Assembly: GCA_964390475.1 (NCBI GenBank)
Contig: CAYMIB010000001.1
Location: 1-60,059, forward strand
Direction of reading: 5' to 3'
Source: an uncultured Candidatus Saccharibacteria bacterium
GTDB taxonomy: Bacteria > Patescibacteriota > Minisyncoccia > Phycocordibacterales > DATGWK01
Length of the DNA stretch: 60,059 bases
The notes under the pieces were generated by a model that saw only the letters and a list, made by a program, of their open reading frames with translations, was not told where the DNA came from and searched no databases. Of the stretch, positions 17,077-59,685 are shown piece after piece. Positions within the stretch are counted from its first letter, which is position 1. Each line of letters opens with the position of its first letter. The translations under genes and the position numbers were made by a program.

Positions 17077-17529
17077 ATGAAAGGAGCCCAAACAGCAGCC
17101 CCAAAAGAGTTCAAACTCTCAACAGTGAACACCGACGAGCGGAAAAAGCTCGATCTTCGTGCTGGTGATACGGTAAAGGTTTGGCAGAAAATTAAGGAAA
17201 AAGACAAGACTCGTCTTCAGGCTTTTGATGGTCTTGTTTTGGCTGTAAAGCATGGCGTGGAAGCTGGTGCCACTTTCACTGTTCGCAAGGTTGCGAGCGG
17301 TGTCGGTGTCGAGAAAATTTTTCCTCTCTACTCTCCAATGATCGACAAGATCGAAACCGTAAAGCGTGCAAAGGTTCGCCGCGCAAAGCTCTACCACATC
17401 CGCGACAAAGCCGCGAAAGAAGTCCGCCGTCAGATGCGAAATGTTCGGGCGGAGAAAGCTCCGGTTGCCGAAGCAGGTGAAGTGAGTGCTCCTGCTGTCG
17501 AAACTCCGAAAGCAGAAGTTGTCGCGTAA
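17077..17529 (+). CDS. rplS: Ribosomal protein L19 with terminal extensions
   Basis: GDTVKVWQKIKEKDKTRLQAFDGLVLAVKH...FTVRK...GVEKIFPLYSP. Confidence 0.9.
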   Translation: MKGAQTAAPKEFKLSTVNTDERKKLDLRAGDTVKVWQKIKEKDKTRLQAFDGLVLAVKHGVEAGATFTVRKVASGVGVEKIFPLYSPMIDKIETVKRAKVRRAKLYHIRDKAAKEVRRQMRNVRAEKAPVAEAGEVSAPAVETPKAEVVA

Positions 17530-17624
17530 TTCCTATAAAAAATTTCAAAAACAAAATTCCGCCAGTCGGCGGTTTTTTGTTCCGCTTGAATTCCCGCGTT
17601 TTTTTACATAGTATGTCCCTACAA

Positions 17625-17707
17625 GCGCGGGTGGCGAAATTGGTAGACGCACTACCTTGAGGTGGTAGCGCCCTTCGGGCTTGGAGGTTCAAATCCTCTC
17701 CCGCGCA
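17625..17707 (+). tRNA. tRNA-Leu (anticodon GAG)
   Basis: Manual fold: acceptor GCGCGGG/CCCGCGC, anticodon stem CTACC/GGTAG, loop TTGAGGT, long variable arm. Confidence 0.9.
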
Positions 17708-17730
17708 CAAGGCTTTTTATTTTAAGGCCG

Positions 17731-17811
17731 TTTATAGTGGCTAGTTAGTAAGGCGGAGTCGTGCGAACAATTTATGGGGCTGGCTAGTAAGGTGCCCCTT
17801 GAACAATTTAT
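17731..17811 (+). repeat. Two degenerate tandem units imitating the upstream region plus 5' end of tRNA-His
   Basis: TTTATaGTGGCTAGTtAGTAAGG...GAACAA | TTTATggGGCTGGCTAGTAAGG...GAACAA | TTTATgGTGGCTATAGTTTAGTGG (the real tRNA). Confidence 0.7.
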
Positions 17812-17883
17812 GGTGGCTATAGTTTAGTGGTAAAACCCAAGTTTGTGGAACTTGAGTCGAGGGTTCGATTCCCTCTAGTCACC
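17812..17883 (+). tRNA. tRNA-His (anticodon GTG) with encoded G-1
   Basis: Manual fold: G-1, acceptor GTGGCTA/TAGTCAC, anticodon stem CAAGT/ACTTG, loop TTGTGGA, discriminator C. Confidence 0.9.
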
Positions 17884-17954
17884 CAGCGTTTAAAATCTAT
17901 AAAATACCCTTGTTTTAAGGGTTGTTTTTGGTTCCACAAAACAGCTGTTTTCTG

Positions 17955-31487: not shown

Positions 31488-32591
31488 CTAACTTTTTACG
31501 GTCGCTAGCATGCGGTTTGAGTACGCTTTATCATCCGTGACATCGACGGCACGATCTGCAAGAAATGGTGGTAGGGTGACCTCTTGGTTGATGTCCGTCA
31601 GCTCTACTTCGAGCAGTATCAAGCCCGGAGGCTGGCTGAACACGTCGAGTTCGAAACACAGACCATTCCAAGGGAAGCAGCAACGCTTCTTCTGGATCGG
31701 TCGGCAGTTCGGGTCAGCTCGAGCAAGAAGTGCGAGGTGTTCTTCCTTGGTAACTTGCCTCTCAATCTCAGTTCTGGTCCCGGGCCCGATCTTTTTCTTT
31801 GTTGTGTGAAAGTAGATTGAACCGCCGCCTTGGCTTCGTATCCGAACACGTTCCTCAATATCTGGATTGCCGGTTGTGAGGTAGTACTGGGTAATATCAA
31901 CCCAAGCGTGTGGTGAAGGCAAAAGGCCGATGTCGACACCAGTGATTTTGTACTTTCTCTCGATCTCGACTGGTGCTGGAATACCAAGAACGCTGCAAAC
32001 TTCCCGAAGCACGCGGTCAATTTTTCCTTCCAATCCGTCGCCGCTGTTGTCGACAATTCTCAGATGCGAGTGTCCTGTCCAGGCAGCCAGTGTACGTTCA
32101 TCGAGCGCTGCTGCTTGTTCAACTGTTTCGCTTCTCGCGATATTGTTTTCACAGCTGTAAAGATCGGGTTTGTCGAAAGCCAATGACCGAAGATGAATGA
32201 CCGCGTCGTACGGTTCGTCTCGCAGGCTCACCAGATTCAAGCCACGTTCACCCAAAAGAAGATCAGCTTCGTGTGGGGGAATGTAGGCAAGGACGTCAGC
32301 AAGACCACGGTCACAGAGAATAACTTTCCTGTCGCCCGGCATAAGTCTGGCCGCTTCCAGCATTCGTCGCTCTTTTTCCTGGGTCAGACCAATGATCTGA
32401 CCTTGAAAGCCGCTGGGTCCAAGCCGCCTTGGTTGGATACCTGCAAGAATGAGGTCGGTTGCTGCTTCAGTGACCACAATGACTGTGTAGCCCAGGTCTT
32501 CAAGTCTCTGTCGAAGCTTGCTCAGGGCTGTTGTTTTACCAGCACATGGTCCACCAGTCAGGACAATCTTTGGGATTCGACCGCTGCTCAT
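31488..32591 (-). CDS. AAA_28-type P-loop NTPase/kinase fused to a C-terminal CYTH (triphosphate tunnel) domain
   Basis: Walker A LTGGPCAGKTT at the N-terminus. The C-terminal half starts with VEIERKYKI (the ExExK CYTH signature). GC-rich. Confidence 0.6.
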   Translation of the reverse strand: MSSGRIPKIVLTGGPCAGKTTALSKLRQRLEDLGYTVIVVTEAATDLILAGIQPRRLGPSGFQGQIIGLTQEKERRMLEAARLMPGDRKVILCDRGLADVLAYIPPHEADLLLGERGLNLVSLRDEPYDAVIHLRSLAFDKPDLYSCENNIARSETVEQAAALDERTLAAWTGHSHLRIVDNSGDGLEGKIDRVLREVCSVLGIPAPVEIERKYKITGVDIGLLPSPHAWVDITQYYLTTGNPDIEERVRIRSQGGGSIYFHTTKKKIGPGTRTEIERQVTKEEHLALLARADPNCRPIQKKRCCFPWNGLCFELDVFSQPPGLILLEVELTDINQEVTLPPFLADRAVDVTDDKAYSNRMLATVKS

Positions 32592-37916: not shown

Positions 37917-38351
37917 ATGCCGCTTACGCTAAAAATTGTCCGACTCGATAAAGAAATGCCAATGCCGAAGTTTGCCCAACCGGGGGATGCGGCGTTCGAT
38001 CTTTTCTCAGTCGAAAAAGTCACCATCGCTCCAGGCGAACGAGTGCAGGTAAAAACGGGGCTCAAAATGGAGATTCCCAACGGTTATGTCGGTTTCATTT
38101 GGGATAAAAGCGGGCTTTCGCACAAGGCAGGGCTAAAAACACTTGGCGGGGTGATAGATGCCAGTTATCGTGGTGAAGTCATGGTCGGCATGATCAATCT
38201 TTCAAAAGAGTCGTATACTTTTGAAAAAGGTCACAAGGTTGCTCAGATGGTGATTCAGAAGCGAGAAGATGTCAGTATTGTTGAAGTCGAGGAAGGTGAG
38301 CTTTCCGAAACAGCGCGGGGTGAAGGGGGTTTCGGTAGTACAGGAAAATAA
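37917..38351 (+). CDS. dut: dUTP diphosphatase
   Basis: GDAAFDL, GVIDASYRGEV and RGEGGFGSTG motifs. Confidence 0.9.
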   Translation: MPLTLKIVRLDKEMPMPKFAQPGDAAFDLFSVEKVTIAPGERVQVKTGLKMEIPNGYVGFIWDKSGLSHKAGLKTLGGVIDASYRGEVMVGMINLSKESYTFEKGHKVAQMVIQKREDVSIVEVEEGELSETARGEGGFGSTGK

Positions 38352-38376
38352 TCAGGAAAATGATGAAGAAAGTTTT

Positions 38377-40098
38377 ATGTTTAATTTTTTAAAAATTTTC
38401 AGCGGGCGAAAAAATGGGCAATCAAAAACTGACTTGGTTCGGTCGGTTATTTTAAATGAGCTAAAAAAAATCTCGATCGACGCGACACCTGAAGAGTTGG
38501 ATTACCCAAAGAACCTTTCAAACGGTGATTTTTCTTTTTTCATTAAAGACAATAGTGTCGACCCGACCACACTGCCGATTGGTCAAATTTCTCATTCGTA
38601 TATTGAGAAAGTTTCGGTACTTGGCCGCTTCATTAATTTTTATTTATCTAAACAGTTTTTTGCAGACTGTTTGGAAAGTGTTATTGAGGCAAAGAGTGGG
38701 TTTGGATCAAACGAAAATTTGGCGGGGCGAAAGGTCATCATTGAATACACCGACCCGAATTTATTTAAAGAACTCCACATTGGCCATTTGATGAGCAACA
38801 CGGTGGGTGAGTCGCTTTCTAGAATTATTGAATGGAATGGGGCGAGTATAAGCCGGGCGATTTATCAGAGTGATGTTGGACTTAACGTCGCCAAAGCTAT
38901 TCGGGGCATTATTGATTTGGAAAAAGAAAAGCCGGTTGATACAGCATCACTTCAGGAAAAAATTTCGTTCATTGGCCGCGCTTACGCCCATGGCTCTGGT
39001 TTGTATGAGAACAACCCTGAAACCAAAAAAGAAATTGACGCACTGAACAAAATTGTTTACGAAAAATCCGACTCGCAGGTCAATGAGATTTATGATTGGG
39101 GGAAGGAAATCAGCCTGGAGCACTTTGAAGAATTGTATAAAAAACTCGGCACGAAGTTTGATTATTATTTTCTGGAAAGTGAAGCGGCGCCGATTGGCCT
39201 TTTTGCAGTCGAAGAACTTTTGGAAAAGGGGATTTTGGAAAAAAGCGAAGGCGCAGTGGTGTTCAAGGGCGAGCGGTACGGCCTGCACACTCGCGTTTTT
39301 GTGAACTCGCTTGGCTTGCCGACATATGAAACAAAAGAGCTCGGACTTTCTAAAATGAAATTCGACCGCAAGGATTGGGATCAGTCTATCGTGATCACTG
39401 CCAACGAACAGACGGATTATTTTACGGTCGTACTAAAGGTGCTTGAGTTTTATGATCACCGCGCGGCCAATCGGACCAAGCACGTCAGTCACGGCATGCT
39501 TCGTTTTGCTGAAGGGAAGATGTCTTCGCGAAAAGGGAACGTTATCACAGGTGAATCACTCATCTCTGATGTCGAGGCACTCGTGCAAGAAAAAATAAAA
39601 GACCGCGACCTGCCAGCTGATGAGAAAGACGAAATTGCCGAGCAGGTGGCTGTTGGAGCGATCAAATATTCCATCCTTAAACAATCTCCGGGTCGCGACA
39701 TCATTTTCGATTTTGAAAAATCCCTTTCATTTGAAGGCGATTCAGGTCCGTATTTGCAATACACCCATGCAAGGGCGTGTTCAATTTTGCGCAAGGCAGC
39801 CGAACAAAAAATTCACAGCGACACTTCCAAAATTTCTGATCAAATAAGTGACATCGAACATTTGCTTATTCGTTTTCCGGCTGTCGTCGAAAGAGCTCAA
39901 AAAGAATTGGCGCCGCAACTCATCACCACATATCTCACCAATCTCGCCGCGGCATTTAACCATTACTACGCTGAACAAGTGATTGTTGATGCGGGGAAAT
40001 CAGAATCTGCATACCGCATCGCCCTGACTATGGCGGTGAAAAATGTTTTGGGAAGTGGCCTGTGGCTTTTGGGAATAAAATCGCCGGAGAGGATGTAG
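38377..40098 (+). CDS. argS: Arginyl-tRNA synthetase
   Basis: TDPNLFKELHIGHLMS (HIGH) and MSSRKG. The track ORF start at 38269 overlaps dut, so the ATG at 38377 was chosen. Confidence 0.85.
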   Translation: MFNFLKIFSGRKNGQSKTDLVRSVILNELKKISIDATPEELDYPKNLSNGDFSFFIKDNSVDPTTLPIGQISHSYIEKVSVLGRFINFYLSKQFFADCLESVIEAKSGFGSNENLAGRKVIIEYTDPNLFKELHIGHLMSNTVGESLSRIIEWNGASISRAIYQSDVGLNVAKAIRGIIDLEKEKPVDTASLQEKISFIGRAYAHGSGLYENNPETKKEIDALNKIVYEKSDSQVNEIYDWGKEISLEHFEELYKKLGTKFDYYFLESEAAPIGLFAVEELLEKGILEKSEGAVVFKGERYGLHTRVFVNSLGLPTYETKELGLSKMKFDRKDWDQSIVITANEQTDYFTVVLKVLEFYDHRAANRTKHVSHGMLRFAEGKMSSRKGNVITGESLISDVEALVQEKIKDRDLPADEKDEIAEQVAVGAIKYSILKQSPGRDIIFDFEKSLSFEGDSGPYLQYTHARACSILRKAAEQKIHSDTSKISDQISDIEHLLIRFPAVVERAQKELAPQLITTYLTNLAAAFNHYYAEQVIVDAGKSESAYRIALTMAVKNVLGSGLWLLGIKSPERM

Positions 40099-40224: not shown

Positions 40225-41055
40225 ATGGGTTCCAAGAATAGTAGTAAGGGCAAGCCAGTGCCAACTGATGACACGTTTGGGGAGTATGTGGCAAACGTTT
40301 TGCGCGGAATGCAGCCTGGGTATCCAGTAGACGTGGTGAGTCCGCGGGAAATTCTGATAAATGGTCGTCGTCTGGATCCGGATAATCTCCTTCGAATGGT
40401 GAACAATGAGCCTGACCGTGGACAGGAAATTGTGGAGCTTTACCTGGAGCAATTGTTGCTTGGTGAGGTGATCCAACTCGCGACGATACCCTTCGACTTT
40501 GCAAGGCCCAGGATCATGCCACGTATCCGGCCCGAGTCGATCTTCGAGCATCTCTCTCGTGATCAGGTCGCACACGTGCCGTTTGTGAACGATACTGTGA
40601 TTACGTTTGTGACCGATCTTCCTGATATGACAATTTCGATCACCACCGATCAACTGACACGGTGGAAGGTGCCGATCAGTGAGATTGACAAGATTGCACG
40701 ACACAATCTGGATAGCCGTCTGGATAAAAATCTTTCTTACCCGGATATCCAGACTGCTCGAAATCACCACAGTGAAATGGTGGCCATTGGTGTTAGTGAT
40801 GGATACGACGCGTCGAGGTTGCTGTTTGTTGATTTGTTCGAGCGTATGCAACCTACCCTCGGTAAAAAATTCTACGTGGCCATTCCGGCTCGTGACTGTT
40901 TCACGGCATTCAACTGTTCTAACGATAGTGCGCTTCAGAATATGCGTGGCATGATTCAGAGTGACTTTATGAAGCTTCCATATCCAATCACACCAGCATT
41001 GTTCACTGTCACCAGCGACGGCGTCGTTGGGTCAGAAGATTTGGCGAAGAAGTGA
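40225..41055 (+). CDS. DUF1444 (YtpQ/UPF0354)-like protein, paralog 1
   Basis: IMPRIRPESIFE...HVPFVNDTVITFVTD...SDGYDASRLL...YVAIPARDCF parallels the B. subtilis YtpQ pattern from memory. GC-rich. Confidence 0.5.
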   Translation: MGSKNSSKGKPVPTDDTFGEYVANVLRGMQPGYPVDVVSPREILINGRRLDPDNLLRMVNNEPDRGQEIVELYLEQLLLGEVIQLATIPFDFARPRIMPRIRPESIFEHLSRDQVAHVPFVNDTVITFVTDLPDMTISITTDQLTRWKVPISEIDKIARHNLDSRLDKNLSYPDIQTARNHHSEMVAIGVSDGYDASRLLFVDLFERMQPTLGKKFYVAIPARDCFTAFNCSNDSALQNMRGMIQSDFMKLPYPITPALFTVTSDGVVGSEDLAKK

Positions 41056-41069: not shown

Positions 41070-41097
41070 AGCCCTGGAAAACCGGGGCTTTTTTCTT
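41070..41097 (+). terminator. Intrinsic terminator
   Basis: AGCCCTGGaaaaCCGGGGCT followed by a T-run. Confidence 0.7.
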
Positions 41098-41118
41098 TGT
41101 CTCTATTGTCAGTATCGT

Positions 41119-41147
41119 TTGACAAAATCTTTTTAAATAACTATTGT
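41119..41147 (+). promoter_or_regulatory. Sigma70-type promoter TTGACA-17-TATTGT
   Basis: Canonical spacing, with CAGA 6 nt downstream. Confidence 0.55.
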
Positions 41148-41189
41148 TTCCCGCAGAGTTTGATCATTTTAAAAGCAAAGGAGTTCGAT

Positions 41190-42035
41190 ATGACGACGCC
41201 ACCTGCTGACAATGCTGGTCCGCACCTTGAATCACAGCCCGACCCGACCTCGGGAAATGCCTCAGAGTGGAATCCTCATGCGACTGACGGCAGTCCGCCA
41301 CCATCTCCGACCGACCCAGTGAAGCAATTTTCCGGACATAAGTTTGCGCTCAAAACAATGCTCGGTGATTGCAGTGGCCTTGTTGATGAACTCGAAGCGT
41401 CGGGCCGACTTACGCCCCACAACATTCAGTCAGTGATGTCGGGTGTGTCTATGCTAAAGGCGCAGGCACGTGAGACGTTGCGGAACGGACTCTACAGGCT
41501 GACGTTTGATGAAGTTCGAGACAGTCTGAGTGTTTCATCCTCGAGAATTGAGACGATCATCGACATGCCGGCTACTGACAAGATGTTTGTGGTCAAGGAG
41601 CACTTCGTCCAAGACGCTGTGGGGGTGAGTGGAATAAAGTTTATTCACCTAGACCAGCTGTTTGTTGAAAGATTTCTGACTGGGGAAGGGAAGGTTGAGT
41701 CACCGACGCCTACACACAAGCTCGCTCGAGTGACGATTGTCCATGGCACCAAAGACTCGCGAATTATTGATGAGCTGGGTGGTCCAGATCTTGTTGAAAC
41801 CATGGTCGCTGACGTTTGTCACCTCATTGTTGAGGCAATGACAGATAAAAATCTCCAACTGGACATGGATGGATGGGAAAACATTTTCTACATTCGTGAT
41901 TTGATCGGCGAACTACAAGTGGTGCACGTATGGGAAGACGACGCAGGTTGGGTTGTTAATACTCGAGCTATCGATAGTCAGCCAAACGGACAAGATGGAA
42001 AGTGTCGAGTGTTTGTTCGAACCCTTGTCCCTTAA
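41190..42035 (+). CDS. Hypothetical protein (GC-rich orphan)
   Basis: ATG preceded by AAAGGAG. 281 aa with a Pro-rich N-terminus. Confidence 0.5.
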   Translation: MTTPPADNAGPHLESQPDPTSGNASEWNPHATDGSPPPSPTDPVKQFSGHKFALKTMLGDCSGLVDELEASGRLTPHNIQSVMSGVSMLKAQARETLRNGLYRLTFDEVRDSLSVSSSRIETIIDMPATDKMFVVKEHFVQDAVGVSGIKFIHLDQLFVERFLTGEGKVESPTPTHKLARVTIVHGTKDSRIIDELGGPDLVETMVADVCHLIVEAMTDKNLQLDMDGWENIFYIRDLIGELQVVHVWEDDAGWVVNTRAIDSQPNGQDGKCRVFVRTLVP

Positions 42036-42138: not shown

Positions 42139-42615
42139 ATGAAACACGCCACAAATTGTTTTCTCCTTCGCGCAGACGGAAAAGTTTTGCTGTCGATGAA
42201 AAAGCGCGGTTTTGGGGTTGGTAACTGGAACGGGTCGGGCGGGAAAGTTCAAGAAGGTGAGAGTGTTGAAGAAGCGGCCGTGCGGGAAGTTTCCGAAGAA
42301 ATCGGGGTGACGCTCGCGACAAAGGATCTTGAAAAAGTTTACGAACTAAACTATATAAAAACCGATGACCCACAATGGGGGATGTTTGTCCACGGTTTTA
42401 TCGTTCGAACCTGGAGCGGTGAGCCGACAGAAAGCGAAGAAATGAAACCAGCTTGGTTTGATCTAGATAAAATTCCATACGACAAAACCTGGGCAGACAC
42501 CAGGCACTGGTTGCTAAAAGTACTGGCTGGCGAAAAAGTAAAAGGTGATTTTATATACAAACCAGACGGTAAAAGTCTGGAGCGTTTTGATGTGGCCAGT
42601 GTTGTAAACTTCTAA
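42139..42615 (+). CDS. NUDIX hydrolase (MutT-like)
   Basis: Nudix box GGKVQEGESVEEAAVREVSEEIGV. Confidence 0.85.
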   Translation: MKHATNCFLLRADGKVLLSMKKRGFGVGNWNGSGGKVQEGESVEEAAVREVSEEIGVTLATKDLEKVYELNYIKTDDPQWGMFVHGFIVRTWSGEPTESEEMKPAWFDLDKIPYDKTWADTRHWLLKVLAGEKVKGDFIYKPDGKSLERFDVASVVNF

Positions 42616-42746: not shown

Positions 42747-43721
42747 ATGAGTCAAGTCGAGGCTAGCAAGTCCAAACTGAACGATTTACTCGTTAACTTG
42801 GCACAAGCCACTCGGACTGGTGAACTCACTATGGAGCAACTGGAGTGGTTTTCGAAGTCGACTAAGGAGCAGCGCGAAAAGTTGCTAGAAGACATGCGGT
42901 CAGCTTGCTCCCTGTTAGAGGAAGAGACCGCACGCGAAGCAAAAGTCGGTTTCGCAGCATTTGTGGCGCAAACCTTGCGTAGGATTAATCCCAAGCTTTC
43001 GGTTGTTGAAGTATCTGCGATGGAAGTTCAGGTTGATGGTCGGCGCCTCGACCTAGAGAACATCTGGCGCATGGTGAATCATGATCCTGAACGAAAGACG
43101 GAAATTATTGAGCACTACCTGAATCAAATGTTTTTAGGTGATGGAATTCAATTGAGCACAATGTCTTTCGAGTTCGCCAGACCCAAGATTATGCCGCGCA
43201 TCCAGCCCGAGTCGATTTTCGAACTCCTCTCGCGTGATCACGTCGCCCACGTACCGTTCGTCAACGATACGGTGATTGTGTTTGTGACTGATCTGCCGAA
43301 TATGACAATTTCCATCACCACCGAGCAATTGGTGAGATGGAAAGTGTCAGCTGAAGACATCGGTAGGATTGCCAAAGAAAACCTTGCCAAATACGTTCCT
43401 GATCTGGAAGTCAGTCTCGTCGAGAGCAAAGAAGGTGCACAGGCTGCGATTTTTGGTCAGCACGATGGCTACGACGCAGCCCGTCTCTGGCTTACTGGAC
43501 TCTACGAGCGTTTTTGCGATCAACTTGGCGGCGACTTTTTTGTCGCTGTGCCAGCCCGGGACATGTTTGTGGCGTTCAGTCGTGGTCCGGAGCCTTTCAT
43601 ACGGCGATTACGAGAGCGCGTAACATCAGACTTCAAAAGACTTCCGTACCCGATCTGCCCGGACTTTTTTCTGGTCACTCGCGATGGTGTTGCCGGGACG
43701 AAGCCAGTGTCTGCGTTCTAG
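42747..43721 (+). CDS. DUF1444 (YtpQ/UPF0354)-like protein, paralog 2
   Basis: Shares a long ungapped block with the 40225 gene (IMPRIQPESIFELLSRDHVAHVPFVNDTVIVFVTDLPNMTISITTEQLVRWKV). Confidence 0.5.
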   Translation: MSQVEASKSKLNDLLVNLAQATRTGELTMEQLEWFSKSTKEQREKLLEDMRSACSLLEEETAREAKVGFAAFVAQTLRRINPKLSVVEVSAMEVQVDGRRLDLENIWRMVNHDPERKTEIIEHYLNQMFLGDGIQLSTMSFEFARPKIMPRIQPESIFELLSRDHVAHVPFVNDTVIVFVTDLPNMTISITTEQLVRWKVSAEDIGRIAKENLAKYVPDLEVSLVESKEGAQAAIFGQHDGYDAARLWLTGLYERFCDQLGGDFFVAVPARDMFVAFSRGPEPFIRRLRERVTSDFKRLPYPICPDFFLVTRDGVAGTKPVSAF

Positions 43722-43846: not shown

Positions 43847-46800
43847 ATGGCTGATATCCATAACAAAACTCCAAAAACCGCCGGCTTGAAAGCTGATGGT
43901 TCGCAGAAAAGCCCTGCAAAAAGCCCGGTCGCGCTTGCCGAAGAAAAAACTCTCCAATTTTGGCGCGAAAAGCAGATTTTTAAAAAGACTCTTGAAAAAC
44001 CGTCGCCGGGCGGGAATTTTATTTTTTACGACGGTCCGCCGTTTGCAACCGGTTTGCCTCACTATGGCCACATTTTAGTAAGCACCATTAAAGACGCTGT
44101 GCCACGATATCAAACGATGCGCGGCAAGCATGTTGAGCGCCGTTGGGGTTGGGACTGCCATGGTTTGCCGATCGAAAACATTGTTGAAAAAGACCTTAAG
44201 GTTTCTGGGAAAAAAGAAATCGAAGAGCTTGGTATTGATCGTTTTAACGAATACGCTCGAAGCAAAGTTTTAGATTTTGCTGATCATTGGCGCGATACTG
44301 TGGAACGTATCGGCCGCTGGGTGGACTATGACGGTGCCTACATGACGATGGATAACACATTCATCGAATCTGTTTGGTGGGCGCTCAAAGGCATTTGGGA
44401 TAAAAATTTAATTTACGAAGGCACAAAAGTTTTGCCGTACTGCCCGCGTTGCGAAACCCCAATCGCGAATTCCGAAATTGCGATGGACGGGTCGTATAAA
44501 GACATTACAGATATTTCGGTGTATGTAAAACTGGCTGTCGAAAACGAGCCGCGAACATTTTTGATCGTCTGGACGACAACTCCGTGGACATTGCCAGGCA
44601 ATACTGCCGCTGCAGTGAACCCCGACCTAGACTACGTCATCGTTAAGATCGGTGGAGAAAATGGCGACTATTACATCGTTGCGAAAGACAAAACAGGAAT
44701 TTTCAAAGAAAAATTTGAGCTGGTCGAAGAAATAAAAGGCAGCGCGCTGGTTGGTAAAAAATTCAAGCCGCCGTTTGATTATTTCACAGGGGACACATTT
44801 GCTGACGGTAAACCAAACAATCTTCCAAACCGCGAAAACGCTTGGAAGGTCTACGCCGCGCCGTACGTTACCGCCGAGGCTGGTTCGGGTATCGTCCATC
44901 TCGCACCCGCATATGGTGAAGAAGACATGGCGCTTGCCAAGGAGCACAATATTCCGTTTATTCGCCACGTTGGCCACGACGGAAAATTCACGGCCGAAGT
45001 CACTGATTTTGCTGGTGTAAAAGCTAAACCGAAAGAAGATCATCAGTCAGGTGATGTTTTGATAATTAAAAATCTAGCGGCTCGGGGCTTGCTTTTTGCA
45101 AAAGAAAAAATCGTTCACTCATACCCGCATTGTTATCGTTGCGAAACCCCTCTTTACTATTTTGCTTTGCCAGCTTGGTTTATAAAAATCGCTACTGAAA
45201 CTGAAAATGGAAAAGCTGTCAAAAAAGATCTCCTAAAAAATAATGAAGACATAAACTGGGTGCCGGAGCATTTGAAACACGGCCGGTTCGGAAAAAGTGT
45301 TGAGGGTGCACCGGATTGGAATATTTCTCGAAACCGTTACTGGGCTTCGCCTTTGCCTTTTTGGAAGTGTCAGAAATGTGAAAAAGCGGTGTGTGTTGGT
45401 TCACAAGATGATCTAGCAAAACACGCACCAGCAAAAAATAAATATTTTCTGATGCGCCACGGCGAGTCGGAGTTTAACCTCGTCAACAAAATCAGCAGTA
45501 CGCCGAATGACAAAAACCACATAACAGAAAAGGGTAGGACCGAGGCTGTTGCGGCCGCAACATTACTAAAGAAAGACGGTGTTGATTTGATTTACGCTTC
45601 TGATCTAGTTCGAGCGAAAGAAACCGCAGAGATTGTTGCCAAGGAAATCGGTTTGCCGATTGAAAGCATTATTTACGCGCCAGAAATCCGCGAGCTAAAT
45701 GCTGGTACATATAATGGCAAAACCTGGGATGAATACCGGGCAACCTTCACCTCGGTTGCCGACCGTTTCGAAGCCGAGCATGTTACCGAGGACGGGGAGT
45801 CTCTTCTAGATGTTCGGGATCGGGCAACAAAATTCATTTATGATCTAGAAAAGAAACACGCCGGTAAAAAAATTCTCATCGTCAGCCACGGCGATACGAT
45901 TTTCTTTATGCAAAAAGGTGTGAAGGGTCTGACCAAAAAAGAACTCGTCAAAGCTTTCGAGATCAAAAATGGAATGATTCCAACCGGCACATATGAAGAG
46001 CTCGATTTCTCACCGATTCCTCACAATAAAAATTTCGAACTTGATTTTCATCGACCATATATTGATGAAATAACTTTTGCCTGCGCGTGCGGTGGTGTGA
46101 TGCATCGAATTCCAGAAGTCATCGACTGCTGGTTTGAGTCTGGTTCAATGCCTTTTGCTCAAAATCATTATCCTTTTGAAAACAAGGAAAAATTTGAGAA
46201 AAATTTCCCCGGTGATTTTATTTCAGAATACATCGCTCAAACTAGGACTTGGTTCTACTACATGCATGTAGTTTCGACAATTCTTTTTGGAAAAGCAGCG
46301 TTTAAACACGTTTTGACGACCGGTACGGTTTTGGCCGAGGACGGCGAAAAGATGTCGAAATCCAAAGGTAATTTTCCAGACCCAGCGATTATTTTCGACA
46401 AATTTGGCGTTGATGCACTTCGTTTCTACTTACTCGGTTCCACTCTTCTTAAATCCGAGGATTTAAACTTTTCGGAAAAAGGCGTCGACGAAGTTTATAA
46501 AAAAATAATTTTGCGGCTGAAAAACGTTGCTTCTTTTTATGAAACTTACGCTGCCGGTGAAGAAGTAGTTACAGGTACGATCGCTACAACCGTCAGTGCA
46601 CCTGACTCGAAAAATATTCTCGATCGATGGATAGTGGAGAGGATCAACATTGTTGTGGCTGAGGTTACTTCATCTATGGAGGCTTACAAAATTGACCAAG
46701 CTCTTTCTCAGATTGATGGTTTCATCGAAGATCTTTCGGTTTGGTTTTTGCGTCGTTCACGCGAACGTCTGAAAAGTGACGACAAAGTGACCCGCGAAGA

Positions 46801-47458
46801 AGCTTTGAAAACTTTCCGTGCAATTTTGTTCAAACTTTCGAAAACAATGGCGCCGTTTACACCATTTATCGCTGAAGAAATTTATCGCACAGTGAATGGT
46901 GAAAAAGAGAGCGTGCATTTGGAAGAATGGCCAACATCCTGGGTTACGCCTGTTGAGGACATGGCGCTCATTTCCGATATGCTCGAAACCCGCCGCGTGG
47001 TCAGTCTTGCTCTGGAGGCCAGGGCCAAAGCTGGTATCAAGGTTCGTCAACCACTTCAAAACCTCGTTGTGAAGTCTACTGTGCTTCAAGGTAAGCAGGG
47101 TTGCATTGATCTCATTGCTGATGAAACGAATATCAAAGAAATTTTATTTGATGCTGAAATTGTGGATGAGGTAGTGCTCGATACAGAAATCACTCTCGAT
47201 TTGCGCGAAGAGGGAAGTCTGCGAGAACTAATCCGATTCGTTCAGGAGCTTCGTAAAAAAGCCGGCCTCAAGCCTGGTGATCTGACGACACTTTTAGTCG
47301 AAGCTGATGCCGATGGTCGGGAATTCGTTAAGAGGTTTGAGGAGGTGATTAAAAAATCGGCTCTGCTTTCTGCTATTTCAATTGTGAAGGACGTCGACGA
47401 CGGTGAAAAAATCGAAATTGATAATGCGAAGTTTAATTTGAGAATCGGAAATAATTAG
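43847..47458 (+). CDS. ileS: Isoleucyl-tRNA synthetase (type 2) with an inserted histidine-phosphatase (PGM-family) domain
   Basis: PPFATGLPHYGHIL (HIGH), KMSKS and a CP1/editing region. The insertion is at about 45440-46005 and carries RHGESEFN, DLVRAKETA, IRELNAG and VSHGDTI. Confidence 0.9.
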   Translation: MADIHNKTPKTAGLKADGSQKSPAKSPVALAEEKTLQFWREKQIFKKTLEKPSPGGNFIFYDGPPFATGLPHYGHILVSTIKDAVPRYQTMRGKHVERRWGWDCHGLPIENIVEKDLKVSGKKEIEELGIDRFNEYARSKVLDFADHWRDTVERIGRWVDYDGAYMTMDNTFIESVWWALKGIWDKNLIYEGTKVLPYCPRCETPIANSEIAMDGSYKDITDISVYVKLAVENEPRTFLIVWTTTPWTLPGNTAAAVNPDLDYVIVKIGGENGDYYIVAKDKTGIFKEKFELVEEIKGSALVGKKFKPPFDYFTGDTFADGKPNNLPNRENAWKVYAAPYVTAEAGSGIVHLAPAYGEEDMALAKEHNIPFIRHVGHDGKFTAEVTDFAGVKAKPKEDHQSGDVLIIKNLAARGLLFAKEKIVHSYPHCYRCETPLYYFALPAWFIKIATETENGKAVKKDLLKNNEDINWVPEHLKHGRFGKSVEGAPDWNISRNRYWASPLPFWKCQKCEKAVCVGSQDDLAKHAPAKNKYFLMRHGESEFNLVNKISSTPNDKNHITEKGRTEAVAAATLLKKDGVDLIYASDLVRAKETAEIVAKEIGLPIESIIYAPEIRELNAGTYNGKTWDEYRATFTSVADRFEAEHVTEDGESLLDVRDRATKFIYDLEKKHAGKKILIVSHGDTIFFMQKGVKGLTKKELVKAFEIKNGMIPTGTYEELDFSPIPHNKNFELDFHRPYIDEITFACACGGVMHRIPEVIDCWFESGSMPFAQNHYPFENKEKFEKNFPGDFISEYIAQTRTWFYYMHVVSTILFGKAAFKHVLTTGTVLAEDGEKMSKSKGNFPDPAIIFDKFGVDALRFYLLGSTLLKSEDLNFSEKGVDEVYKKIILRLKNVASFYETYAAGEEVVTGTIATTVSAPDSKNILDRWIVERINIVVAEVTSSMEAYKIDQALSQIDGFIEDLSVWFLRRSRERLKSDDKVTREEALKTFRAILFKLSKTMAPFTPFIAEEIYRTVNGEKESVHLEEWPTSWVTPVEDMALISDMLETRRVVSLALEARAKAGIKVRQPLQNLVVKSTVLQGKQGCIDLIADETNIKEILFDAEIVDEVVLDTEITLDLREEGSLRELIRFVQELRKKAGLKPGDLTTLLVEADADGREFVKRFEEVIKKSALLSAISIVKDVDDGEKIEIDNAKFNLRIGNN

Positions 47459-48100: not shown

Positions 48101-48694
48101 TTGGCCTACCACACCTACAACACACCGGGATTAATTTTAGGCAGTACACCTTCGGGTGAGGCGAGTCGCTATGTTTACATTTTCACTAAAGATCTCGGTC
48201 TAGTCGGCGCTCACGCTCAAAACACTCGGCATGTAAGTTCGAAATTGCGATATGCTCTAGACGCTCCGGCTCGTTCTCAGGTCTCGCTCGTCCGCGGCAA
48301 AAATATGTGGCGGCTTATAAGTGCTGTGCCGGACAAACGGTTCTATTCAGTTTTTGGCGAAGATACTGAGCGAATGATGCTCTGCACTCGAACGTTTTCT
48401 TTGATTAAAAAGCTTCTGGCAGGCGAGGAGGCCCATCCAGAACTTTTTGATGTGGTTAACGATTTTTTAGATTTTATACAAAATCCGGAGCCTGCAAGCG
48501 TTGATTTAAAAGATGCAGAAGCGGTGCTCGTTTTGAGAATTTTGCACTCTCTCGGTTACATTCCAGAAAACGATTTAGCCAAACAATTCGCGCGTGGTAC
48601 TGAATGGAATCCAGAAATTATTTCCGCCATGGCTCCATATCGTAAGGAGGCGATTAAGATCATAAATGAATCACTGCGGGCGACGGGGCTGTAA
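48101..48694 (+). CDS. recO: DNA repair protein RecO
   Basis: TTG start, 197 aa, RecO-like N-terminal OB pattern (GLILGSTPSGEASRYVYIFTKDLGLV). Confidence 0.6.
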   Translation: MAYHTYNTPGLILGSTPSGEASRYVYIFTKDLGLVGAHAQNTRHVSSKLRYALDAPARSQVSLVRGKNMWRLISAVPDKRFYSVFGEDTERMMLCTRTFSLIKKLLAGEEAHPELFDVVNDFLDFIQNPEPASVDLKDAEAVLVLRILHSLGYIPENDLAKQFARGTEWNPEIISAMAPYRKEAIKIINESLRATGL

Positions 48695-50293: not shown

Positions 50294-52237
50294 ATGGCCT
50301 TTGACCCTAAGGACAGTTCAAACGAAGGAAGAATAGATAGCCTGGAGCGAAATTTGTACTCGCGAGATGCGGTGCCGATTACGGCTAAAAAGCGCCCGGA
50401 CATGACGCCGCATGAAAAGCTTGTGGAATACGGCTGGAGGGGGGATGATAAAAAGCTCGACGAAGATATTGTTGAAATGAATCAAACTCACCGAAAAAGT
50501 TCGTTTGCGACCAAAATTTTCCTGGCATCGGTTTTGTTTTTTGCGTTAGCTGCCGGTATTGCTGCTTACATTATTCTCGGTGGCTTCAATGTCATTTCTT
50601 CTAAAAATGTTGATGTTACGATCCAGGGACTTATTTCCGTCGCCGCCGGTGAAGAATCTTCCTTCGATATCATTGTAAAAAATAACAATAACTCGACGAT
50701 CGAATCCGGCACAATATATGTAGAGTATCCAGAAGGCACGCGAATGTCTGGCGATGTGACAAAGGAGTTGACACGCGATCAATTTGAACTAAAAACAATC
50801 GCTTCGGGTGGTATCTATACCGCCACCATCAAACCAGTTTTTTTTGGTGAGAAGGACAGCCTGAAACAAATAAAAGTTAATCTAGACTACAAAGCTCGTG
50901 GTTCAAATGCTTCATTTCAAAAAGAAAAAACCTTCGACGTTACAATAAAATCTTCGCCAGTCATCATGACTGCTGAGGTGCCAAGCGAGGTCAACGCCGG
51001 CCAGGACATCGAAATCAAAATCGAGGTCGCTTCGAATTCGAATACTTTAATTCGCAACCTGATCGTTCGTGCCGAGTATCCGTTCGGTTTTTCTTTCATC
51101 AGTGCTAGTCCAGCGGCTGCTTTCGACACAAACGTTTGGCGGATTGGTGACTTGAACCCGACCGACAAACACACGATCGTCATCAAGGGTCGTATGGAAG
51201 GTCAGAATGAAGAAGAGAGAACTTTCAGATTTATGACTGGCACCGCTAGTCCGAATGATGACAAACAACTAGCGGTTAGCTATATCGCTACTCAGGCCAC
51301 TCTTGCTATAAAAAAACCTTTCATTGGTCTGACTTTACAGCTCGGCGGAAAAGCTGAAACGAAAATCGCTTCGGCTGGAGAAAAAATTCAAGGCACGCTT
51401 TCATGGACAAACAATGTTCCGGTTGCTATTAACGATGCGACGATTCAGATTAAGCTTTCTGGAAAAGGTCTTGATCGAAATCAGGTGTCGGCTGGCCTCG
51501 GCGGTTTTTACCGGTCTTCGGACAACACCATAACTTGGGATAAAAATTCGGTATCAGAACTGCGAAGCATTGAGCCGGGCGAAAGAGGTTCTGTCAGTTT
51601 TGTTGTCGGAGTATTGCCAAGCTCACAGCAACTTCTTGCTCAGGGCCGAAATATGGATATTGTTCTCGATGCCACAGTTTCTGGCACTAGGATTCAGACT
51701 GGATTGCCACAGGAAGTTAGATCGCGAGTCTCTGGCCTAGCTAAGGTCGGTACAAATCTTTTGGTTAATGGTCGGGTCATGCATTCAATCGGTATTTTCA
51801 ATAACACCGGCCCAGTTCCTCCGAAAGCTGAAACCGAAACGACTTATACGATTGTTCTAAACGCCCTGAATTCTTTTAACGATGTAGCGAACGTCGTGGT
51901 TACTACTCAACTGCCGCCATATGTTCGATGGCTTACCAAGGTTAGTCCGTTGAGCGAACAGGTCTCATATAATGAATCAACTCGGACTGTCACATGGTCA
52001 ATTCCAGACTTGCGAGCCGGAGTCGGTTATACTTCGGCTGCGAAAGAAGTTGCTTTTCAAGTCGCGCTTTTGCCAAGCCTGAGCCAAGTCGGCACGATTC
52101 CTGATCTTACTGGTCCGATCATAATGAGAGGAACTGATCGGTTTGTCGGCGGGACAGTTGAATCGAATAGGGCAGCGTTCAACACACGCACTACCGATCC
52201 TGGTTTCGACAACCGCGATGCTGAAGTTGATAATTAA
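50294..52237 (+). CDS. Large membrane-anchored surface protein with repeated beta-sandwich-like segments
   Basis: 647 aa with one N-terminal TM helix and a repetitive Ig-like composition. No family recognised. Confidence 0.5.
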   Translation: MAFDPKDSSNEGRIDSLERNLYSRDAVPITAKKRPDMTPHEKLVEYGWRGDDKKLDEDIVEMNQTHRKSSFATKIFLASVLFFALAAGIAAYIILGGFNVISSKNVDVTIQGLISVAAGEESSFDIIVKNNNNSTIESGTIYVEYPEGTRMSGDVTKELTRDQFELKTIASGGIYTATIKPVFFGEKDSLKQIKVNLDYKARGSNASFQKEKTFDVTIKSSPVIMTAEVPSEVNAGQDIEIKIEVASNSNTLIRNLIVRAEYPFGFSFISASPAAAFDTNVWRIGDLNPTDKHTIVIKGRMEGQNEEERTFRFMTGTASPNDDKQLAVSYIATQATLAIKKPFIGLTLQLGGKAETKIASAGEKIQGTLSWTNNVPVAINDATIQIKLSGKGLDRNQVSAGLGGFYRSSDNTITWDKNSVSELRSIEPGERGSVSFVVGVLPSSQQLLAQGRNMDIVLDATVSGTRIQTGLPQEVRSRVSGLAKVGTNLLVNGRVMHSIGIFNNTGPVPPKAETETTYTIVLNALNSFNDVANVVVTTQLPPYVRWLTKVSPLSEQVSYNESTRTVTWSIPDLRAGVGYTSAAKEVAFQVALLPSLSQVGTIPDLTGPIIMRGTDRFVGGTVESNRAAFNTRTTDPGFDNRDAEVDN

Positions 52238-52242
52238 GTAAA

Positions 52243-53553
52243 ATGGAAACTGAAGCTCAAAAAAATGTAAATATGGAAGACATTATCTCGCTTGCCAAGC
52301 GCCGAGGTTTTATTTTTCAAGGCTCCGAAGTCTACGGCGGTCTTTCTGGTACTTGGGACTATGGCCCGCTCGGCGTTGCACTCAAAAACAACATCAAAAA
52401 TCTCTGGTGGCGACGGTTTGTGGAAAGTCGTGACGACATGCACGGTGTCGACGCGGCGATTTTAATGAATCCAAAAGTTTGGGAGGCGAGCGGTCATGTT
52501 TCTGGTTTTTCTGATCCGCTTGTCGAGTGTACGAAATGCAAAAAGCGTTTTCGAGCTGATCAGATAGAAGGAGATGCAACAAAATGTCCAGACTGCGGTG
52601 GCAAACTCGGCGAGTCGCGCCAGTTCAACATGATGTTCAAAACTCATGTCGGAGCAATGGAAGACGAAACTTCTGTTTCGTATCTTCGCCCAGAAACTGC
52701 TCAGGGTATGTTCATGAACTACAAAAATGTGATGGATTCAATCCATCCAAAGCTTCCGTTTGGTCTCGCGCAGATTGGCAAAGCTTTTCGCAACGAAATC
52801 GCTCCGCGTGATTTTATTTTCCGTTCCCGTGAGTTCGAAAAAATGGAAATCGAATATTTTATTCACGCCGGCGAATGGAAAAAACATTTTGAATATTGGC
52901 GAGAACAAATGGTGGAGTGGATGAGAGACATTGGTCTTAGCTCAGCGAAAATTCATGAGCTCGATGTTCCTGAAGGCGACCGCGCTCACTACTCAGACAA
53001 AACGATTGATTTCGAATACGATTTTCCTTTCGGCCGCAAAGAACTTTACGGCATTGCCTACCGCACTGATTTTGATTTAAAAAAACATAGCGAATCGAGC
53101 CGTGTCGACCTTTCTTACTACGATGAAGAAACCAAAGAGCGATTCATTCCGCATGTCATCGAGCCGACATTTGGTCTCGACCGCACAATTCTCGCCGTGC
53201 TCTGCGAAAGCTATAGCCTCGACACGATGGGCGAGGAGCCACGCGCATTTCTGAAACTTCCGCTCGCTCTTGCTCCGGTCAAAGTCGCGGTCTTTCCTTT
53301 GCTTAAAAATAAGCCGCAACTCGTCGAAAAAGCTCGCGAAGTTTTTGCTCAAATTAAAAAAGTTGTTCCGAGTGCTGTGTTCGACGACAACGGCAATATC
53401 GGCAAACGCTATCGCCGCCAAGACGAAATTGGTACGCCATTCTGCGTGACCGTTGATTTCGATACGCTCGAAGACAACACCGTGACTCTCCGCGATCGAG
53501 ATACTGGCCAGCAGAAACGGGAGAAAATTGAGGAAATTCTCCAGAATTTTTAA
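52243..53553 (+). CDS. glyQS: Glycyl-tRNA synthetase (dimeric class II type)
   Basis: RRGFIFQGSEVYGGLSGTWDYGPLG, FRNEIAPRDFIFRSREFEKME. Confidence 0.9.
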   Translation: METEAQKNVNMEDIISLAKRRGFIFQGSEVYGGLSGTWDYGPLGVALKNNIKNLWWRRFVESRDDMHGVDAAILMNPKVWEASGHVSGFSDPLVECTKCKKRFRADQIEGDATKCPDCGGKLGESRQFNMMFKTHVGAMEDETSVSYLRPETAQGMFMNYKNVMDSIHPKLPFGLAQIGKAFRNEIAPRDFIFRSREFEKMEIEYFIHAGEWKKHFEYWREQMVEWMRDIGLSSAKIHELDVPEGDRAHYSDKTIDFEYDFPFGRKELYGIAYRTDFDLKKHSESSRVDLSYYDEETKERFIPHVIEPTFGLDRTILAVLCESYSLDTMGEEPRAFLKLPLALAPVKVAVFPLLKNKPQLVEKAREVFAQIKKVVPSAVFDDNGNIGKRYRRQDEIGTPFCVTVDFDTLEDNTVTLRDRDTGQQKREKIEEILQNF

Positions 53554-58194: not shown

Positions 58195-59685
58195 ATGAAG
58201 CCACCTTTTTACATCACCACCACTCTGCCGTATGTGAATTCTGACCCCCACATTGGTCATGCGATGGAGTTTATTCGGGCAGACATCGTCGCTCGCTACA
58301 GAAAACTCATGGGCCACGAAGTTTTTTTTAATACTGGCACCGACGAACACGGCATCAAGATTTATCAAAAGGCAACTGAGGCCGGCCGCGTACCACAGGA
58401 TTACGTCGATGAATATGCTGCAAAATTTCGAGATCTGTTGTTGGCATTAGGTATTAGTTCTGACGTCCATTTCATCCGTACCACTGACGCACAACATGTT
58501 GCGGCAGCTCAGGAATTTTGGAAAATGTGTGACAAAGCAAGGGATATATATAAAAAAGAGTACAAAATAAAATACTGTGTTGGCTGCGAGCTCGAAAAAA
58601 CCGAGTCAGAACTCGTCGACGGTCGCTGCCCGATTCATCCAAGCCGCGAACTCGAGATCATAGAAGAGGAAAATTATTTCTTTAGATTTTCTAAATATCA
58701 GGCACGGCTACTCGAACTTTATGCCAAAACGCCGGATTTTGTCATTCCTTCGTCGCGTCTCGGTGAAATTCGATCTTTTGTTGAGCGCGGCCTCGAGGAC
58801 TTTAGTATTTCACGTCTTGCAAGCAAAATGCCATGGGGAGTGCCAGTGCCGGGCGACAGCGAGCAAGTCATGTATGTTTGGTTCGATGCGCTCGTGAGCT
58901 ACATCTCAACGCTCGGCTGGCCAAAAGACCTGATGACTTTTGAAAAATGGTGGAACGAATCAGGTGGTGTCGTGCAGTATTGTGGCAAAGACAACCTTCG
59001 TCAGCAGGCGGCAATGTGGCAGGCCATGCTCATGTCGGCTGGTCTTGCGCCGTCTCGGCAAATCGTCATCGACGGTTTTATTACTAGTGGCGGCAAAAAA
59101 ATGTCGAAAAGCGAAGGTAATGTCATTGATCCGATCGCTATTGTGAATGAGTACGGCGGAAATGGAACCAATGGAAACAACGGCGCCGAAATTCTTCGCT
59201 ATTACGTTGCTCGCGAACTCCATCCGTTTGAAGACAGCGATTTTACGATGGAAAAATTCAAAGGTGCCTATAATTCTCATCTTGCTAACGGCCTCGGTAA
59301 TCTCGTCAGTCGAATCATGAAAATGGCTTCGGCTAACCTGTCTGGCCCAGTTTCAATTCCTAAAGAATCTGATGCCAATAAAACCGCGCAGGATTTTCCA
59401 GAAAATTTCAAAAAAGCCGTCGAAGGTTTTGATCTTCAAACCGCGACAAACATAATCTGGGAGCATGTCGGAGTGCTCGATGCGACAATCCAAGAAACTG
59501 CACCCTTTAAACTCATCAAAACTGATAAAGAAAAAGCGATTACAACAATCGAGGATTTAGTAACCAAACTTTACGTTGTGGCCAGTATGCTTCAGCCAAT
59601 TATGCCTGAGACTTCAAATAAAATTAAGGAGCTTGTAAAGACCAACACTGCACCTGAGTTGCCGATTTTCCCGCGGCGTGACTAG
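58195..59685 (+). CDS. metG: Methionyl-tRNA synthetase
   Basis: TTLPYVNSDPHIGHAMEF (HIGH), KMSKSEGN, and Zn-knuckle CVGCE...CPIH. Confidence 0.9.
   Translation: MKPPFYITTTLPYVNSDPHIGHAMEFIRADIVARYRKLMGHEVFFNTGTDEHGIKIYQKATEAGRVPQDYVDEYAAKFRDLLLALGISSDVHFIRTTDAQHVAAAQEFWKMCDKARDIYKKEYKIKYCVGCELEKTESELVDGRCPIHPSRELEIIEEENYFFRFSKYQARLLELYAKTPDFVIPSSRLGEIRSFVERGLEDFSISRLASKMPWGVPVPGDSEQVMYVWFDALVSYISTLGWPKDLMTFEKWWNESGGVVQYCGKDNLRQQAAMWQAMLMSAGLAPSRQIVIDGFITSGGKKMSKSEGNVIDPIAIVNEYGGNGTNGNNGAEILRYYVARELHPFEDSDFTMEKFKGAYNSHLANGLGNLVSRIMKMASANLSGPVSIPKESDANKTAQDFPENFKKAVEGFDLQTATNIIWEHVGVLDATIQETAPFKLIKTDKEKAITTIEDLVTKLYVVASMLQPIMPETSNKIKELVKTNTAPELPIFPRRD

Follow-up and report, generated by a model that had tools for sequence, protein, structure and literature searches.

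The ileS gene of an uncultured Candidatus Saccharibacteria bacterium raises the question of why a bacterium would carry a phosphatase inside an aminoacyl-tRNA synthetase (aaRS). The gene lies in a 60,059-nt stretch of contig CAYMIB010000001.1 (assembly GCA_964390475.1), called the window here, and its product, an isoleucyl-tRNA synthetase (IleRS), contains about 200 residues that resemble a histidine phosphatase (HP). We predict that the gene encodes the housekeeping type 2 IleRS of a Paceibacteria-like Patescibacteria/Candidate Phyla Radiation (CPR) bacterium with a complete HP domain in connective peptide 3 (CP3). This nested architecture, written IleRS[HP] below, is real, widespread and apparently undescribed, and it is the normal form of IleRS in large parts of the CPR. 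We assign a probability of roughly 95% to its being a genuine, active and CPR-wide bifunctional architecture.

A preliminary description of the window, made from the sequence alone, had placed an HP domain with intact catalytic motifs in frame at 45440-46005, within an IleRS whose reading frame is continuous and whose motifs are intact on both sides. The analysis bears this out. Nucleotides 43847..47458 (+) form a single unbroken open reading frame (ORF) of 1203 aa that ends in TAG and contains HYGH, KMSKS and all the HP motifs that had been quoted. In a Pfam search of the full protein, PF00300 (His_Phos_1) was found at aa 534-708 (E=2.6e-34, 119 bits compared to a gathering cut-off of 21.7), flanked by two stretches of PF00133 (tRNA-synt_1), the nesting that had been predicted. 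Searched alone, the interval 45440-46005 matched PF00300 at E=5.9e-36, and scores across both queries were 119-124 bits against the same cut-off. The protein also contains the anticodon-binding domain PF08264 and the type 2 C-terminal domain PF19302, and it passes the ileS equivalog model TIGR00392 (NCBIfam) with 845 bits compared to a cut-off of 621. A full-length AlphaFold2 (AF2) model built from 80 homologues has a predicted local distance difference test score (pLDDT) of 89.8 and a predicted template modeling score (pTM) of 0.84. The top structures retrieved with this model by Foldseek, 8c9d (IleRS2), 1ile and 8wnd, are IleRS2 and eukaryotic IleRS enzymes. In an 80-sequence full-length alignment (A2), the HIGH region, the T-rich and GxGxVHxAP editing signatures, D-W-F-x-S-G and KMSKS are invariant or nearly so. 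No second ileS was found within the 60-kb window. The features of the gene are as follows.

43847..47458, plus strand: ileS, type 2 IleRS with nested HP (ORF, TIGR00392, Foldseek, AF2)
44060..44071, plus strand: HIGH signature HYGH, aa 72-75, in the N-terminal half of the Rossmann fold (motif; invariant in A2)
44570..44908, plus strand: CP1 editing signatures WTTTPWT (aa 242-248) and GSGIVHLAP (aa 346-354), invariant or nearly invariant in A2
45368..45379, plus strand: first half of the CP3 zinc knuckle, C508-x2-C511 (CQKC, aa 508-511; motif)
45422..46033, plus strand: inserted segment, the HP domain with short linkers, aa 526-729 (alignment against the L123 and L126 IleRSs; AF2)
45446..45970, plus strand: histidine phosphatase domain, PF00300 envelope, aa 534-708 (Pfam)
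45455..45463, plus strand: RHG motif with R537, nucleophile H538 and G539 (MRHGESEFN, aa 536-544; motif)
45611..45613, plus strand: second phosphate-binding arginine, R589 (SDLVRAKETA, aa 585-594; motif)
45692..45694, plus strand: putative acid/base glutamate, E616 (IRELNAG, aa 614-620; motif)
45887..45889, plus strand: second catalytic histidine, H681 (SHG; IVSHGD, aa 678-683; motif)
46043..46090, plus strand: IleRS resumes with DFHRPYID (aa 733-740) and the second half of the zinc knuckle, C746-x-C748 (CAC, aa 746-748; alignment, motif)
46349..46363, plus strand: KMSKS signature, aa 835-839 (motif; nearly invariant in A2)

The insertion site is defined by comparison with two IleRSs that lack the insert, those of loci L123 and L126, which are 47% and 36% identical to the window protein outside the insert. 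In both, a linker of ~10 residues joins the CxxC...GS-x-x-EL hairpin to D-x-HRPYID, as the preliminary description had expected of a normal IleRS running straight from the zinc knuckle to HRPYID. In the window, ~200 residues (aa 526-729, nt 45422-46033) take the place of this linker, beginning after ...GSQDDL and ending before ELDFHRPYID, so the interval proposed originally was right to within ~30 nt. The HP domain is therefore nested in the CP3 zinc-knuckle subdomain, between the two Rossmann-fold halves. GC content is continuous over both junctions. In the AF2 model, pLDDT is ~87-96 through both junctions with no low-confidence linker on either side, which argues for an HP domain rigidly mounted on CP3 rather than tethered to it. 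CP3 is a peripheral connective-peptide subdomain whose topology differs among solved IleRSs; in the T. thermophilus enzyme it contains a zinc motif (PMC7191050). The window protein has both CP3 cysteine pairs, C508/C511 as well as C746/C748. Among 130 embedded HP copies, each from a different 50%-identity cluster, D733, H735 and D740 of the resumed IleRS are conserved, and the zinc-knuckle cysteines are kept in only ~65%, with S, N, G or D as substitutes. Many lineages can evidently do without zinc binding where the HP is inserted.

The same insertion recurs at the same site across the CPR. An exhaustive HMMER scan of 1.84 billion cluster representatives, with the insert and ~60-aa flanks as the query, found at least 336 representatives of 50%-identity clusters at E<=1e-30. 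Nearly all of the best 150 of these 336 match the whole query in one stretch, at about aa 430-750 of proteins of ~1150-1200 aa. Both PF00300 and the IleRS domains are present in 120 of the 120 best full-length matches, at 50-76% identity. A word-index search with the insert and its flanks had given only two ileS-embedded relatives, and the rarity that this implied was a sensitivity artefact overturned by the HMMER scan. Species-representative genomes of GTDB were scanned with a gapped DNA pattern for the nested architecture (WG-P-P-W, gap, RHG, gap, LT--G), which yielded at least 120 loci; tblastn confirmed 117 of 120, and the remaining three, all actinomycete matches, are chance. A survey of CPR orthologs, proposed in the preliminary description, therefore finds the insertion in at least 336 clusters and at least 117 GTDB species genomes. 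The confirmed loci are almost all labeled as Patescibacteria/CPR, namely many Paceibacteria/Parcubacteria groups, Peregrinibacteria/Peribacteria, Magasanikbacteria and Saccharibacteria-labeled metagenome-assembled genomes (MAGs). One nested-HP IleRS, KKP39778.1, has been in GenBank since the groundwater CPR set of 2015. Three confirmed loci (L013, L025 and L026) come from MAGs labeled Gammaproteobacteria or Spirochaetia. The protein of L025 is ~52% identical to CPR members, and mislabeling or mis-binning of these MAGs seems more likely than occurrence outside the CPR.

A nested enzyme assembled from environmental DNA could be an assembly chimera, a fusion artefact, an intein, a pseudogene or a catalytically dead spacer. 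Some public assemblies do break the IleRS[HP] gene: L001 (4470-8047) contains three 1-nt indels and L002 (1-2039) one, an ileS at L214 (2769-6271) is interrupted by a scaffold gap of Ns, and GenBank entries KKP37996 and KKP37997 are two pieces of one ileS. From such broken assemblies gene callers emit HP-containing fragments that resemble standalone or split genes. Pseudogenization, suggested by L001 and L002, was rejected because each break comes from a 1-nt indel, mostly within homopolymers, and the gene is intact at 109 further loci. Likewise, many representatives of ~750 aa with a common start had suggested a split ileS, and the one case examined is the scaffold gap of Ns. Among the fetched loci, 109 have one ORF that extends for at least 400 codons to either side of the HP; 52 others end at the locus edge and ~6 look frameshifted. 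Intact single ORFs at more than 100 independent loci, together with an architecture shared by hundreds of clusters, exclude chimerism, pseudogenization and an intein. The Pfam search of the insert found PF00300 only, with no Hint or homing-endonuclease domain, and the borders are ordinary linker sequence. These results, with the confident AF2 model, uphold the earlier view that the gene is neither a fusion artefact nor an intein nor a pseudogene.

The catalytic residues are as constant as the architecture. R537, H538 and H681 are present in all 130 embedded copies, R589 and E651 in 129, R659 in 128 and G539 in 117. Position 616, whose acid/base role we assume by homology to PhoE and cofactor-dependent phosphoglycerate mutase (dPGM), is E in 122 copies and D in 7. 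The HP catalytic core is likewise essentially invariant in standalone copies encoded adjacent to ileS, which are described below. Both the synthetase and the phosphatase thus appear to be under purifying selection, and the near-invariance of HP catalytic residues and IleRS motifs speaks against a dead spacer and a degenerate synthetase alike. The probability that the insert is an artefact or a dead element is negligible.

The insert is predicted to be a branch 1 member of the HP superfamily (PF00300), of the small metabolite-phosphatase type, in no defined subfamily. Its profile score, the residues R537, H538, R589, E616 and H681 and a PGM-like fold (PGM, phosphoglycerate mutase) all point to membership in the superfamily. 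The nearest solved proteins by sequence are PhoE/YhfR (1ebb/1h2e, E=6e-17), Schizosaccharomyces pombe PGM, PspA (4ij5), GpgP and CobC. The family profile aligns over its full length to PhoE (138 bits), PspA (131 bits) and CobC (118 bits). An AF2 model of the HP domain only (pLDDT 87, pTM 0.86) matched PspA, GpgP, PhoE, S. pombe 1fzt, TIGAR and CobC in Foldseek with template modeling (TM) scores of 0.74-0.79. The matches to PhoE, PspA and CobC dispose of the possibility, raised at the outset, that the insert is a known IleRS connective-peptide insertion lacking a phosphatase fold. The broad-specificity phosphatase PhoE/YhfR (1ebb/1h2e), Hydrogenobacter phosphoserine phosphatase PspA (4ij5), the alpha-ribazole phosphatase CobC and mycobacterial GpgP share with the insert the fold, the catalytic R-H...R...E...H set and a size of ~200 aa. 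In contrast to the HP described here, which is nested in IleRS or translationally coupled to it, they are free-standing, and their substrates are not transferable to the insert because no subfamily cut-off is reached. Scores fall below the cut-offs of the models for CobC (TIGR03162, 83-88 bits compared to an equivalog cut-off of 162.9), PspA (NF045917, 69-73 compared to 350), SixA (TIGR00249, 41.9 compared to 74.5) and GpmB (NF002901, 60-65 compared to 261). The second-best NCBIfam match is NF005567, the bifunctional RNase H/acid phosphatase (E=5e-23, 82 bits compared to 326).

One interpretation of a PGM-like domain in these genomes is that it is a glycolytic enzyme in hiding, namely a divergent PGM undetected in some metabolic reconstructions of Parcubacteria. 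According to one report, several shallow clades of Parcubacteria lack PGM (PMC7304191). A full-length alignment to the family profile is obtained with 1fzt, the small monomeric PGM of S. pombe (108 bits, TM 0.78), and there is a weak match to NF038349, a model for archaeal small dPGM. However, the TIGR01258 (pgm_1) match, which is limited to the first ~70 residues, scores 48-54 bits compared to a cut-off of 81.7, the dPGM_arch score is 59-65 bits compared to 225, and canonical dPGM structures align only to profile positions ~3-117, that is, over the N-terminal ~115 positions. In E. coli GpmA, the mutase-specific motifs are FTGW, ERHYG, WRR and HGN. None of these four occurs in the 1203-aa sequence, and phosphatase-type HPs outscore the mutases. 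We therefore regard a hidden PGM as very improbable.

The HP is also found as a gene of its own. The closest standalone HPs, P0003 and P0005, are 35-41% identical and lie between argS and an insert-less ileS (960-976 aa). The gene order at these two loci, smpB-argS-HP-ileS-recO-DUF11, parallels the order in the window, where the genes flanking ileS that serve for comparison are the following.

38269-40098, plus strand: argS (ArgRS), upstream synteny anchor (Pfam)
48101-48694, plus strand: recO, downstream synteny anchor (Pfam)
50294-52237: DUF11 gene (Pfam)

The order argS-HP-ileS recurs in L123-L127 and in many metagenome loci, and recO follows ileS in L126/L127 and many other loci as well. 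Another standalone HP, P0012, is located downstream of argS and three genes upstream of ileS. When metagenome contigs were scanned with an alignment of the standalone HPs and 80 loci were kept, all 69 loci at E<=1e-20 were linked to ileS: in ~55 the HP is nested, in 12 it lies directly upstream of an insert-less ileS, in 1 it is beside an inverted ileS and in 1 it is cut by the contig end. The 11 weakest of the 80 matches are unrelated HPs with no ileS nearby. The control HPs P0017, P0031 and P0044, from apparently non-CPR genomes, are not linked to ileS. The genes between argS and ileS vary among loci, and the linkage persists at ~30-50% identity. In each of the 14 adjacent-format loci, the stop codon of the HP gene either overlaps the start of ileS (ATGA-type or -10 nt) or precedes it by 1-10 nt, as is typical of translationally coupled genes. 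Together, these findings lead us to infer that HP and IleRS form a conserved two-enzyme unit.

The two formats appear to have been exchanged several times. On an unrooted, distance-based neighbor-joining (NJ) tree of IleRS with the HP masked, the adjacent-format proteins fall in several places, and the minimum number of format changes over 200 bootstraps was 3 in 24 and 4 in 176, never fewer. The number and direction of these changes are provisional. A first NJ tree of the HPs had suggested that the ileS-linked copies are monophyletic. This was dropped, since bootstrapping gave no clean split, and the claim of one HP family is based on gene context because the HP alignment is too short to resolve the matter. 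Most plausibly, nested genes gave rise to separate ones repeatedly. If a partial tandem duplication copied ileS from its 5' part as far as the HP, an additional HP would come to lie directly upstream, and an in-frame deletion could subsequently remove the internal one. The opposite route, from separate to nested, would need a precise in-frame insertion at the identical site every time. We prefer the nested-to-separate direction as the most plausible on this mechanistic argument only, the trees being unrooted.

Why should the two enzymes have stayed together? We slightly favor functional coupling of phosphatase and synthetase over mere co-inheritance. In our proposal, the HP would sit rigidly on CP3, or dock there when encoded separately, and such a unit would explain why nested and separate formats can be exchanged without loss. 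The HP would act as a phosphomonoesterase matched one-to-one to IleRS in both amount and location. Given such coupling, its substrate is probably a small molecule. A small phosphorylated metabolite or nucleotide would be likelier than a macromolecule, because the nearest HP relatives are metabolite phosphatases.

Several points weigh against this proposal. The linkage could be purely historical, since partial tandem duplication places the HP upstream of ileS without selection for adjacency. The pairing is looser in L128 and L169, where a few genes or an inversion set HP and ileS apart. All trees were built by NJ, and bootstraps of the HP tree give no clean boundary between outgroups and the copies linked to ileS. 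The insert falls short of every curated HP subfamily cut-off, and the proposed substrate class therefore derives from weak similarity. In addition, the linkage counts come from the best matches kept in the scans, and CPR IleRSs with no HP may exist.

In an alternative, the HP is a passenger: an independent housekeeping metabolite phosphatase captured once in the permissive CP3 loop of an essential, constitutively expressed gene and kept for its own function, so that its link to ileS, including the adjacent format, is historical rather than functional. CP3 is well suited to such a capture, being peripheral and variable in topology among solved IleRSs (PMC7191050). The nearest relatives of the HP are broad-specificity or metabolite phosphatases unconnected with translation. 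An excised HP could land upstream of ileS by partial tandem duplication, unselected, and L128 and L169 show the pair loosening. Other observations speak against a passenger. All 69 close relatives found are linked to ileS over very deep divergence (~30-50% identity), even though different genes lie between argS and ileS from locus to locus, stop/start overlaps are kept in the adjacent format, linkage is retained through at least three format changes, and the junctions are rigid and of high confidence in AF2 rather than a floppy tether. We consider the passenger explanation somewhat unlikely and prefer functional coupling.

The preliminary description had suggested that the HP might act on a phosphorylated nucleotide or a tRNA end, or couple aminoacylation to a signaling nucleotide. 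In one such model, the HP is a tRNA- or RNA-end phosphatase acting in cis, which strips a 2'- or 3'-terminal phosphate (or what pyrophosphorylation or cleavage has left there) from tRNA(Ile) that has been damaged or modified by a toxin and so makes it chargeable, a built-in repair or anti-toxin function. ToxSAS toxins pyrophosphorylate the CCA end of tRNA, and HEPN toxins clip it. The AF2 model, in which the HP is embedded at a fixed geometry in an enzyme that binds tRNA, is compatible with this function. The NF005567 match (E=5e-23) provides a precedent for an HP fused to a nucleic-acid enzyme, and a distant HP is encoded within a gatCAB operon. On the other side, the closest HPs act on small metabolites, and general end repair offers no reason for specificity to IleRS. 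In the paper on the yeast IleRS-tRNA complex, CP3 is named once, in a list of domains, and is not among the tRNA contacts described (PMC11685878). There is no format-specific basic surface. The standalone HPs are basic (~+20), and adaptation to binding RNA or a partner was considered as the cause and rejected, because in the same subclade the embedded HPs and the IleRS bodies are just as basic; the positive charge is a property of lineage-wide composition. Repair of tRNA ends is, on balance, quite unlikely to be the function of the HP.

A broader version of this idea is that the HP serves as a third catalytic center of IleRS, beside those for synthesis and editing, acting in cis on the 3' end of tRNA(Ile) or on a phosphorylated nucleotide bound to IleRS. 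For example, it might reverse 3'-(pyro)phosphorylation inflicted by toxins or clear an inhibitory ligand. If this were true, CPR bacteria would gate or repair isoleucylation by means of a built-in phosphatase that can also be supplied as a separate subunit. This, too, we regard as unlikely.

Two additional loci deserve mention. The distant standalone HP mentioned above, P0034 (218 aa), is encoded at 5001-5657 of L133, a 216-kb Logan contig from SRR14271345. It lies inside a gatCAB operon, sharing 8 nt with gatC and separated from gatA by 4 nt at its end, and it is a second, independent link between an HP and an aminoacyl-tRNA enzyme. Separately, a HepT-like/MNT nucleotidyltransferase toxin-antitoxin pair is located a few genes upstream of smpB-argS-HP-ileS in L123-L125 (at 965-1548 in L123). 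HEPN toxins are able to target tRNA 3' ends. The proximity of this pair to the cluster is probably coincidental.

Taken separately, the two parts are ordinary: as host, a type 2 IleRS, and as guest, a branch 1 HP. The host resembles Priestia megaterium IleRS2 (8c8v/8c9d) and T. thermophilus IleRS (1ile) in overall fold (TM 0.82-0.91, 31-34% identity), and it shares with type 2 IleRSs the HIGH, KMSKS and CP1 editing motifs as well as PF08264 and PF19302. The CxxC...CxC zinc motif of CP3 is common to the host and T. thermophilus IleRS (PMC7191050). Unlike solved or described IleRSs, the host has ~200 extra residues that form a complete HP within CP3. Accessory enzymes on IleRS have a precedent in the NCBIfam entry NF040702 (ileS_w_GNAT), an IleRS variant that likewise carries an extra catalytic domain. 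That domain, an N-acetyltransferase (GNAT), is of another family than HP, and the window protein matches the model through its IleRS parts only (299 bits compared to 1999). We found no publication on an IleRS with a GNAT domain. HPs joined covalently to a nucleic-acid-processing enzyme occur in the actinobacterial RNase H/acid phosphatases (NF005567, PRK07238; M. tuberculosis Rv2228c), but these are end-to-end fusions with a partner unrelated to IleRS, whereas the insert is nested.

What seems to be new is the nesting itself, its conservation and the alternative format of coupled genes. No mention of a phosphatase in IleRS or any other aaRS was found in the literature searched, which mostly did not cover subscription journals, and a 2026 survey of IleRS domain evolution mentions no phosphatase. 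The preliminary description knew of no described aaRS with an embedded phosphatase, and that part stands as far as the literature goes. The architecture is not a rarity, however, having been in GenBank since 2015 (KKP39778.1) under names that do not disclose it. Databases call IleRS[HP] proteins "isoleucine--tRNA ligase", "class I tRNA ligase family protein" or "hypothetical protein".

The remainder of the window includes other genes related to tRNA. Four aaRS genes lie within 22 kb, encoding ArgRS (38269-40098), IleRS[HP] (43847-47458), a class II HisRS-like protein (52243-53553) and MetRS (58195-59685), and among these four only IleRS has an extra domain. Between argS and ileS are two paralogous DUF1444 genes, at 40225-41055 (276 aa) and 42747-43721 (324 aa), and between these paralogues an unannotated ORF of 312 aa (41097-42035) and a NUDIX hydrolase gene (42139-42615). 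This DUF1444/ORF/NUDIX block is missing from the argS-HP-ileS loci. A 367-aa ORF at 31488-32591 (-) combines an AAA_28/KTI12-like P-loop domain with a weak match to CYTH (triphosphate tunnel), an unusual pairing. Five tRNA genes are present at 9847-17884 (Ser-TGA, Arg-TCT, Val-TAC, Leu-GAG and His-GTG). None of the window's tRNA genes is a tRNA-Ile gene near ileS.

Few enzymes have been studied as thoroughly as the aaRSs, whose accessory domains have more than once exposed new biology, including editing, signaling and complex assembly. Here, a second, apparently active enzyme in the body of IleRS, or in a coupled neighbor, has been kept throughout a radiation to which a large part of bacterial diversity belongs. 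This should surprise synthetase specialists, and it is directly testable with recombinant protein. Even if the HP is a passenger, IleRS[HP] would be a clean natural case of one enzyme nested in another, with repeated switching between nested and separate formats, and a convenient lineage marker. It would also call for caution in the metabolic reconstruction of CPR bacteria, as an HP/PGM-like enzyme is concealed in a gene annotated only as a tRNA ligase, and an HP/PGM-superfamily domain within ileS could mislead HMM-based pathway calls in either direction. If the two activities are coupled, IleRS[HP] would represent a new kind of step in translation, serving control or repair, in organisms whose genomes are minimal and whose remaining domains are all likely to matter.

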